Below are positions 26,469-27,742 of a stretch of DNA of 64,000 nt, in pieces. The first letter of the stretch is position 1. Each line of letters opens with the position of its first letter. A program made the translations under genes and the position numbers. Source of the stretch: a virus (Duplodnaviria; Heunggongvirae; Uroviricota; Caudoviricetes); IMG/VR virus record IMGVR_UViG_3300045988_154391; one strand, written 5' to 3'. The notes under the pieces were generated by a model that saw only the letters and a program-made list of their open reading frames with translations, was not told the DNA's origin and did not search any database.

Positions 26469-27443
26469 TTATCCGTTACCGCACGACGGTTTCTGCGTGA
26501 TAAACGTCTCAAGCATCTTTTCCGCAATTGCCGACCAGGTGTGACACTGGACCTTTTCAGCATTTTTCACGCGATCAACGCGAGCAATAACCTCATCCCA
26601 ATCAATCCGCGACTTGATAACCATATGGTTCACCAAAGCCAGGCGATCTGGCGGAAGGCAATCGGGAGGCGTTAATACCAACGCCCCGCACATTGCCGCC
26701 TCAAGAACAGTTAATCCAAGGCTTTCGGGATGCGTAACGATAAAAACGTCACTCTTACGCAATTCAGCTGCAAATTCGGTTGCTGGCACCGGCGTCCGTC
26801 TGTATGGAATTACCGAAATATTCCCCGGATCAATGGTAACCAATCCGTCATCAGTCAACGTTCTGGCCTCATACGGAACGGTCAGACGCTGAAGGTTCAT
26901 AAGGATACTTAAGGAGTGATCAAACCCACTAACATCAAATGCAGCGTGGTCTACAAAAATACGCAGAACATCGTCTGTTTTGGTTTCCAGATGGAACAGA
27001 TCCTGATTCGCTGCCCATCCAACATGTTTGTTAAAGCGATTATGACGCTCTAACCTGCCGGGATTATCCAGGTACCGCCAGGTATCATCGCGGACAGTAA
27101 AAGTAATATCGACTGGTGCCGAATCCAGCATAGAACCGTCATATACCTGGGCTACCCATCCAGAGAATCGGCGACACAGTTGCATGCCTATTTCCCTGGG
27201 TACCGTAGTAAAATACCTCAATCCTGGTGCCAAAATGGCCTTCGCAGAACATGCGGTCGCAGCAGTCAACACAGCTTCAACATAATCCTCCGGGCTTTCG
27301 ACGCCGGGGGAATATGGACGATGGTATTGCAATGTAACCCCTGCCTCACTAAAGGCGCAGGCCAGGTTATAAGCCCACATTTCCGTATATGTTTTCACAT
27401 CACTGATAGCTTCAAATTTTCGCCCAATGATCAGGATGTTCAT
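26469..27443 (-). CDS. GT-B fold glycosyltransferase (GT4-like)
   Basis: 324 aa; C-terminal THPESLGLTVLEAAMCGALVL, the E-x7-E region. Confidence 0.5.
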   Translation of the reverse strand: MNILIIGRKFEAISDVKTYTEMWAYNLACAFSEAGVTLQYHRPYSPGVESPEDYVEAVLTAATACSAKAILAPGLRYFTTVPREIGMQLCRRFSGWVAQVYDGSMLDSAPVDITFTVRDDTWRYLDNPGRLERHNRFNKHVGWAANQDLFHLETKTDDVLRIFVDHAAFDVSGFDHSLSILMNLQRLTVPYEARTLTDDGLVTIDPGNISVIPYRRTPVPATEFAAELRKSDVFIVTHPESLGLTVLEAAMCGALVLTPPDCLPPDRLALVNHMVIKSRIDWDEVIARVDRVKNAEKVQCHTWSAIAEKMLETFITQKPSCGNG

Positions 27444-27742
27444 TGCGTCTCCTTTTCCCTGACTAAAAGCTCATCCAGCTTGCTTTTATGTTTGAGCACA
27501 TAGCCACATATTTTTCCTTTGGAGCTAATTTGCGGAATGGAATAATATTCCGAAAATACTAATTCAGCCTTTTCTAAGACAAGTGAAACACCATAGCGCG
27601 CAACATGTCTGTCGGTCATTTTTGCATCACTGAGATTACCTTTAATTGATAACCAGTCGTTGAGGTACATATGGTTGCGATTGGCTTTTTTCAGCATGTT
27701 GCTCAACCAATTTTTATTACGCTTAGTTAGTTTCCGTTGCAT
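27440..27742 (-). CDS. Hypothetical basic protein
   Basis: 100 aa; 4-nt overlap with the glycosyltransferase gene and a 1-nt overlap with the end of ban. Confidence 0.4.
   Translation of the reverse strand: MQRKLTKRNKNWLSNMLKKANRNHMYLNDWLSIKGNLSDAKMTDRHVARYGVSLVLEKAELVFSEYYSIPQISSKGKICGYVLKHKSKLDELLVREKETQ

Follow-up and report, generated by a model that had tools for sequence, protein, structure and literature searches.

Bacteriophage P1 carries a gene named dbn, for "downstream of ban", which lies directly after the helicase gene ban and before the baseplate gene 5 (P1_gp078 in NC_005856, protein YP_006544) and is annotated as "function unknown, possible glycosyltransferase". The counterpart in P7 is named glt, and that in RCS47 is named Dbn or glycosyltransferase (GT) family 4. 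The dbn annotation reportedly dates from the P1 genome paper. Here, the corresponding locus was analysed in the Caudoviricetes record IMGVR_UViG_3300045988_154391, a P1-like phage-plasmid that was examined as one stretch of 64,000 nucleotides (the window). An ortholog of dbn occupies the usual place, and a 100-aa open reading frame (ORF), orf100, stands between ban and dbn. The locus is likely the ban–dbn end of the ban operon in a phage-plasmid of the P1 type, with a single additional gene, and this degree of confidence covers the best explanation as a whole, that is, this reading of the locus together with the module role of Dbn and the reading of orf100 given below. The features of the locus are as follows:

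27742–29112, minus strand: ban, DnaB-family replicative helicase, first gene of the operon (Pfam DnaB_C 1.1e-107, DnaB 4.7e-35)
27440–27742, minus strand: orf100, 100-aa basic protein of phrog_12809 (ORF list and PHROG profile)
26469–27443, minus strand: dbn, 324-aa predicted GT-B (GT4-like) glycosyltransferase, ortholog of P1 Dbn (ORF list and comparison with P1)
25791–26423, plus strand: baseplate gene 5, convergent with dbn at the far end of the interval (ORF list, P1 annotation)
26422–26450, both strands: hairpin with a 12-bp stem between the convergent stops of gene 5 and dbn (RNA folding)
28352–28379, minus strand: sigma-70-like promoter match inside ban, positional counterpart of the predicted P2dbn of P1 (consensus scan; P1 annotation mapped by blastn)

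Position of dbn and layout of the locus

The window Dbn is 97.5–98.8% identical over residues 1–324 to the copies of P1, P7, RCS47, SJ46 and JL22, and it matches the profile phrog_2518 with an E value of 7e-233. It resembles P1 Dbn in its approximately 98% identity, in having ban upstream and the convergent gene 5 downstream, and in its strand. The N-termini differ: P1 Dbn is annotated with 332 residues, the first eight of which (MQWNEEKP) form a leader whose start overlaps the ban stop codon, whereas in the window the ATG of this leader starts orf100 and Dbn begins at the equivalent of P1 Met9 with its own AAGGAG. The ban DNA is 98.5% identical to P1 ban, and the region as a whole is 98–99% identical to P1-type phages by megablast, with phage matches in two pieces that together span only 90% of the query. 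Judged by sequence and gene order, dbn is an already annotated P1 gene, and the glycosyltransferase carries no novelty. The initial annotation of the window knew of no such gene at this position in P1 and named its presence there as a finding that would overturn this view; P1_gp078 lies at exactly this position.

In P7, glt contains a premature stop at Trp23 of the 324-aa frame (TGA in place of the TGG of the window and P1; L002, approximately 2560–2600, minus strand), and the P7 annotation gives a shorter Glt protein from an internal start. The premature stop fits the dispensability of dbn, which is nonessential in P1 by CRISPR interference (CRISPRi) (PMC10695390). Deviations were also observed in two further contigs. 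In IMGVR_UViG_2695420521_000002 (L027, 6253–7655), dbn and gene 5 are separated by approximately 1.3 kb of additional DNA, and similarity to Dbn ceases at residue 318; the extra DNA is probably an insertion that removed the 3´ end of dbn and the terminator. In the P1-like contig L017, which retains orf100 and dbn, the ban match is broken into two frames at residue 150 (approximately 4078), an apparent frameshift or sequencing error.

The final base of the ban stop codon is the first base of the orf100 start (TAATG), and 4 nt (ATGA) are common to the orf100 stop and the dbn start. The dbn ATG is preceded, at a distance of 5 nt and within orf100, by the Shine-Dalgarno sequence AAGGAG. The hairpin at 26422–26450 has a folding energy of -20.6 kcal/mol on the plus strand and -18.9 kcal/mol on the minus strand, with a z score of approximately -3.3 on both strands, and U-rich tracts lie 3´ of it on either strand. 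It is absent from the list of a simple consensus terminator scan and is plausibly a bidirectional intrinsic terminator. The match at 28352–28379 is a promoter by prediction only, and the sole structured RNA found by Rfam on the locus is a tRNA at 29395–29467. This layout agrees with much of the initial annotation. The two ORFs between ban and the baseplate gene are confirmed by the ORF list, the Pfam DnaB_C match and the comparison with P1; the proposed translational coupling to a 100-aa basic protein is borne out by the overlap, the Shine-Dalgarno sequence and an isoelectric point (pI) of 9.87; and the proposed bidirectional terminator corresponds to the hairpin, which is strong on both strands.

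Fold and conserved motif of Dbn

The AlphaFold (AF2) model of Dbn comprises two Rossmann-like domains with a cleft between them (predicted local distance difference test (pLDDT) 94.8; predicted template modelling score (pTM) 0.90). A Foldseek search against the PDB returned 95 matches at E <= 1e-3, and the best 50 are nearly all GT-B glycosyltransferases, mostly of the GT4 type. The structural neighbours (E down to 3e-9) include sucrose-phosphate synthase (6kih), GlgM (6tvp), PimB' (3oka), BshA (3mbo) and glycogen synthase (2bis). In an alignment of 57 family members (28–98% identity), both glutamates of the E240-x7-E248 motif are invariant, and H238, S241, G243 and G253 are kept alongside them. 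The C-terminal segment that holds this motif (HPESxGLxxLEAxxxG) can be aligned to its GT4 counterpart in 8xsg and 3c4q. Dbn therefore shares with retaining GT-B enzymes of the GT4 type the two-Rossmann-domain fold and the aligned C-terminal donor-binding segment, but it is compact, with 324 aa, and its identity to them is only 9–14% at template modelling (TM) scores of 0.5–0.67.

Several observations weigh against this assignment. The Pfam model Glycos_transf_1 (PF00534) scores 25.1 bits on Dbn, below the gathering threshold of 26.4, and covers residues 221–307 only. By inspection of the sequence only, the canonical glycine-rich loop of GT4 enzymes is not evident, with one Gly after strand 1, and neither is the Arg/Lys pair that binds phosphate; an invariant D165-H166 is located at the expected place, together with a near-invariant R216. 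The 332-aa P1 Dbn has a precomputed PF00534 match, and the NCBI name is GT family 4, so that membership of Dbn in PF00534 is borderline. The confident GT-B model and the invariant E-x7-E motif nevertheless support the glycosyltransferase nature of Dbn, and on this point the initial annotation, which had proposed a GT-B-type enzyme with an E-x7-E region, is upheld.

Dbn is acidic (pI 5.5; N-domain pI 6.1), and no hydrophobic stretch in it is long enough for a membrane span; the top 19-residue Kyte-Doolittle mean is 1.53 and falls in the buried helix and strand of the E-x7-E region. In Gtr-type lysogenic conversion, GtrA, GtrB and GtrC are integral membrane proteins, whereas Dbn has no membrane segment and no Gtr-like Pfam match, and the maximal Kyte-Doolittle mean of orf100 is 0.70. 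The PADLOC defence-system models assigned no family to Dbn or orf100. Dbn is best explained as a soluble enzyme of the cytoplasm with a GT-B fold of the GT4 type. Dbn would transfer a hexose from a host nucleotide-sugar, and the E240-x7-E248 segment would hold the donor.

The PmgO, PmgP and PmgQ genes and the possible acceptors

Three neighbour families are common to the Dbn homologs (36–57% identity) in L038, L039 and L040, with the PHROG labels alpha-2,3-sialyltransferase (4603), unknown (2111) and glycosyltransferase (1962). A tblastn search of these families against the window placed all three at 18.0–20.5 kb, where they correspond to pmgO, pmgP and pmgQ of P1:

19873–20535, minus strand: pmgO, MptE-like and sialyltransferase-like, putative pathway partner of Dbn (P1 annotation; homolog in phrog_4603; Pfam MptE-like 23 bits, sub-threshold)
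19349–19975, minus strand: pmgP, a second MptE-like protein, putative pathway partner (P1 annotation, gene-order comparison)
18675–19367, minus strand: ppp, lambda-type metallophosphatase between pmgP and pmgQ (Pfam Metallophos 5e-15, gene-order comparison)
17977–18678, minus strand: pmgQ, predicted glycosyltransferase of phrog_1962, putative pathway partner (P1 annotation; weak PDB match to the GT-A enzyme 6mw5, E 0.085)

Both the window and P1 contain dbn and the three putative partner genes in a non-contiguous arrangement, in which dbn lies approximately 6 kb from pmgO-pmgP-ppp-pmgQ, across the baseplate/tail block. CRISPRi in P1 indicates that pmgO, pmgP, ppp and pmgQ are each nonessential (PMC10695390). 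The following arrangements were observed in other elements:

L038, P2-like prophage: PmgO-PmgP-Dbn-PmgQ, abutting
L198, lytic coliphage IME392: PmgO-PmgP-Dbn-PmgQ, abutting
L199, lytic coliphage EP_H11: PmgO-PmgP-Dbn-PmgQ, abutting
L040, lambdoid phage: order PmgO-PmgP-Dbn-PmgQ, with an additional ORF separating PmgP from Dbn
L039, T4-like context: Dbn-PmgO-PmgP, PmgQ on the opposite strand
L125 and L129, phage-plasmids of 90–97 kb: PmgO, PmgP and PmgQ contiguous, Dbn approximately 5 kb off

In P1-type genomes, ppp occupies the exact slot, between pmgP and pmgQ, that the Dbn homolog occupies in unrelated phages. Dbn homologs with 31–33% identity, located in phage contigs of 127 kb and 281 kb (L003, L005), lie within sugar-nucleotide/glycan gene clusters that hold a PmgQ-like gene, a nucleotidyltransferase/cupin protein, GT8-like and GT47-like proteins, a pyruvyl transferase and methyltransferases. 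On the basis of this gene context, Dbn probably performs one step of a dispensable multi-enzyme glycosylation pathway. It would act with PmgO, PmgP and PmgQ on one glycan as an optional fourth enzyme, and the module would be split in P1-type genomes. The Maf/DUF115 (MptE-like) sets for flagellin O-glycosylation and the virion glycosylation cassettes of mycobacteriophages are similar in that several small transferases, here with two MptE-like members, are combined in one operon. The present module also resembles them in being dispensable for growth and in lying beside structural genes in several phages; it differs in that the MptE-like similarity of PmgO and PmgP is sub-threshold.

The L038 cassette (7644–11708, minus strand) lies between the portal gene and the gene for a 1,354-aa KAP-family NTPase beside gpA, in an accessory-gene region of the P2-like type. 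In L037 (3806–5001) and L041 (4860–6004), which are 95-kb Citrobacter-type elements, a Dbn homolog (56–57% identity) is located after two coupled genes (phrog_8514, phrog_15291) and before an Rrf2-family regulator, a third type of gene context.

Several points count against the proposed module. The Cronobacter phage JK004 contains PmgO, PmgP and PmgQ (69–80% identity) and is missing both ppp and Dbn; obligatory membership of Dbn is ruled out by this phage, and Dbn is therefore an optional fourth member. The Dbn homologs of L037 and L041 have other neighbours within approximately 5 kb. Proteins of the PmgO/PmgP type score 21–23 bits against Pfam MptE-like, for which the threshold is 34.6, and the predictions for both are drawn from these scores and the PHROG labels. 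The link between the genes is one of genomic context and covers approximately 10 independent loci; two IMG/VR scans for Dbn-family loci gave almost only P1-type copies. Literature searches on dbn, pmgO/P/Q and MptE-like phage enzymes returned no functional study and no paper that treats these genes as a unit, and no glycosylated P1 protein is reported in the searchable literature. A wider proposal is offered tentatively: P1 and many unrelated temperate and lytic phages may carry an undescribed four-enzyme glycosylation module (MptE/Maf-like PmgO and PmgP, GT-B Dbn and GT-A-like PmgQ) that builds a glycan on a protein of the phage particle or on some other acceptor relevant to the phage; the "putative morphogenetic" genes pmgO/P/Q of P1 would then form one pathway with dbn. 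Separately, orf100 would be a fast-evolving factor made with Ban.

The candidate acceptors of Dbn are ranked in the order phage particle protein, host envelope glycan and, last, DNA. A particle protein is placed first because lytic as well as temperate phages carry the module, several of them next to structural genes, and because MptE/Maf-type enzymes glycosylate proteins. Modification of a host surface glycan, which the initial annotation had offered as one of two functions, is possible. In its specific form, Dbn would act alone or with PmgO/P/Q on an envelope glycolipid, for instance the lipopolysaccharide (LPS) core that serves as the P1 receptor or another undecaprenyl-linked glycan, and would alter the surface of carrier cells and so bring about superinfection exclusion or lysogenic conversion. 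We consider this unlikely, although GT4 transferases of the LPS core and of lipid-linked glycans are among the structural neighbours (5n80, PimA, PimB', PglA), dbn is dispensable for plaque formation (PMC10695390), the PHROG category of PmgQ-like proteins is moron / host takeover, and one copy of the module lies in a P2-like accessory region beside the KAP NTPase. The module is also found in the strictly lytic IME392, EP_H11 and T4-like L039, in which conversion of a lysogen would have no obvious use. Dbn, with its acidic N-domain, shows no evident basic patch for membrane binding, and the P1 annotation puts C1 operators and a late promoter at ban and at the pmg operon, suggesting lytic expression.

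DNA is ranked last because Dbn is acidic, its likeness to the HY126 enzyme is only generic, and modified sugars are not known from P1 DNA; the other function offered by the initial annotation, DNA modification, appears unlikely. In particular, it is very improbable that Dbn is a DNA glycosyltransferase that shields phage DNA from restriction in the manner of the T4 alpha/beta-glucosyltransferases or the HY126 arabinosyltransferase. The DNA arabinosyltransferase of phage HY126 (9ir0; PMC13326640) does rank fourth among the neighbours of Dbn (E 1.7e-8), dbn adjoins a replication gene, and some homologs lie near genes of DNA metabolism. However, the match to 9ir0 (TM 0.58, 13% identity) is no better than that to sucrose-phosphate synthase or GlgM and reflects the generic GT-B fold, the T4 AGT/BGT enzymes are not among the best 50 structural matches, the pI of Dbn is that of an acidic protein, and production of hydroxylated or hydroxymethylated bases is not known from the P2-like and lambdoid phages that carry the module. 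Ordinary restriction enzymes cut P1 DNA, and P1 is not known to encode a pyrimidine hydroxymethylase or hydroxylase; both points count against this role.

orf100 and the ban–dbn junction

Pairwise blastn reveals that 13 bp of P1 are replaced by 288 bp in the window. The segment is delimited as follows:

27444–27731: segment without counterpart in canonical P1 and P7, which have 13 bp there; it holds nearly all of orf100 (blastn against P1, sequence view)

The segment has a GC content of 38.6%, whereas the genes on either side have approximately 48%. A search of 50,697 phage records gave no DNA match to it, and it is present in 52 of the 438 matching plasmids of PLSDB. Among complete E. coli genomes (n = 5,426), 80 contain the segment and 477 contain dbn; 79 of the 80 copies of the segment are plasmid-borne, and approximately 83% of the genomes with dbn are without orf100. 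The ban–dbn junction is polymorphic among P1-like phage-plasmids, and it is not listed in a survey of regions that vary among P1-like plasmids (PMC9603915). The 8-codon Dbn leader of P1 was considered as a clean scar of an orf100 deletion and rejected: its 5´ 11 nt match, and the remainder is not derivable by a single deletion. The leader is likely a relic.

The orf100 protein matches phrog_12809 end to end (E 8.8e-46). A HMMER scan of 1.84 billion representative proteins yielded only four distant relatives, three of them full-length (34–43% identity, E 2e-12 to 8e-6); a word-indexed search found only near-identical E. coli copies, and the distant relatives came from the full HMMER scan. The full-length relatives have a common length, a pI of 9.7–10.2 and an invariant N-terminal helix motif (K4-L5...R8-N9-K10). 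Compared with the members of phrog_12809 in Avunavirus (Av05_0060) and in the Cronobacter phage (JK004_34), orf100 is alike in length, basic charge and N-terminal motif, but the E. coli P1-like allele is only 33–43% identical to other members. A 200-aa, secreted-looking protein (P0082) contains three tandem repeats similar to the C-terminal beta segment of orf100 (VPxxDSQGRxCGY), a weak match with an E value of 3e-4. The AlphaFold model, built from five sequences only, has a pLDDT of 86 and an alpha3-beta4-alpha topology. This model matches no solved structure, and orf100 has no sequence or fold similarity to the known helicase loaders DnaC, lambda P, SPP1 G39P and T4 gp59; Pfam, NCBIfam and PADLOC gave nothing usable. 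The E. coli alleles differ at 12 sites, of which 7 are synonymous, and none of them is interrupted by a stop codon. Together with the profile match, the shared features of the relatives and the model, this variation indicates that orf100 is a real gene.

Relatives of orf100 in the Pantoea alvi element L007 and in a Cronobacter-type group (L010, L031 and phage JK004) start on the ban stop codon (TGATG). In these elements, identity to the window is 76–81% for Ban and 60–78% for genes 5 and 6 but 33–41% for the orf100 relatives, which indicates that orf100 evolves much faster than its syntenic neighbours. Unrelated small genes follow the orf100 relative, and no Dbn is located between ban and gene 5. 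Conversely, at the loci examined, Dbn homologs from outside the P1 lineage of E. coli have no gene resembling orf100 beside them. The ban–orf100 arrangement is therefore the conserved link, the orf100–dbn overlap is a feature of one lineage, and orf100 appears to be linked to ban and not to the glycosyltransferase. Against this link, the relatives in lytic Avunavirus phages lie among small early ORFs with no helicase adjoining, canonical P1 is without orf100 and its Ban works without it, and synteny by descent, rather than a functional link, may account for the adjacency among P1 relatives.

The initial annotation had treated the two genes as a functional pair, a view that is not sustained, since Dbn occurs without orf100 in most P1-like elements and orf100 relatives follow ban without Dbn. 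A two-gene functional unit new to this element, which would glycosylate phage DNA or convert host surface glycans, has very little chance of being correct. The ATGA coupling and the strong Shine-Dalgarno sequence of dbn inside orf100 speak for it, as does the presence of dbn directly after orf100 at 18 of 18 IMG/VR loci, but these 18 loci are more than 96% identical and represent one lineage. The distribution of the two genes also argues against a unit: canonical P1 has dbn without orf100, the 477 E. coli genomes with dbn compare with 80 that have orf100, orf100 relatives occur without any Dbn, and the Dbn homologs of other phages are never accompanied by an orf100-like neighbour. Gene order across these elements points to a lineage-specific juxtaposition of a known gene with a small ORF linked to ban.

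In our preferred reading, orf100 would be a small, basic, fast-evolving accessory protein that is translated immediately after Ban and is not a subunit of a glycosyltransferase. It would be made early in lytic growth with Ban and would serve as a binding protein, not an enzyme, with nucleic acid, the replisome or a host factor as its target. A host- or defence-facing role comes close to an even chance and is favoured over that of a dedicated Ban cofactor. Such a cofactor, which would be a loader, an adaptor or an inhibitor of host DnaB/DnaC produced in fixed proportion to Ban through the stop/start overlap, is doubtful. Three diverged lineages of the P1 type retain the overlap with the ban stop, with changing genes after it, and the family is basic throughout, with the invariant K4-L5...R8-N9-K10 helix. 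However, canonical P1 and most dbn-carrying E. coli genomes do without orf100, its Avunavirus relatives are not beside a helicase, the contrast between its identity and that of Ban is unlike a tightly co-evolving partner, and orf100 is structurally unlike the known loaders.

Upstream of ban, the place of tciA-tciB-tciC of P1 is occupied in the window by genes for a 275-aa SPFH/Band-7 protein (Pfam 1e-30) and a 78-aa hydrophobic ORF (29495–30539, minus strand). The N-terminus of the SPFH/Band-7 protein resembles a lipoprotein signal (LTGC). Variability of the tci region among P1-like plasmids is already known (PMC9603915). ARAGORN places a tRNA with the anticodon CAT at 29392–29467 (minus strand) and a tRNA-Ser (TGA) at 30803–30889 (minus strand), and Rfam at its gathering threshold confirms the first only. 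The CAT-anticodon tRNA lies at the position of P1 trnI, which is annotated as tRNA-Ile2 in P1.

The remaining interest of the locus is modest and concerns an undescribed indel at the ban–dbn junction, a fast-evolving family of small proteins, and a context hypothesis that joins dbn with pmgO/P/Q. A small ban-coupled gene of the orf100 type is present in approximately one-sixth of the dbn carriers and is missing from the reference phage P1. In P1, which is among the phages studied best, the gene context suggests one shared and testable role for dbn, pmgO, pmgP and pmgQ, and glycosylation of phage particles or cell surfaces bears on host range, immune recognition and the design of phage therapy.

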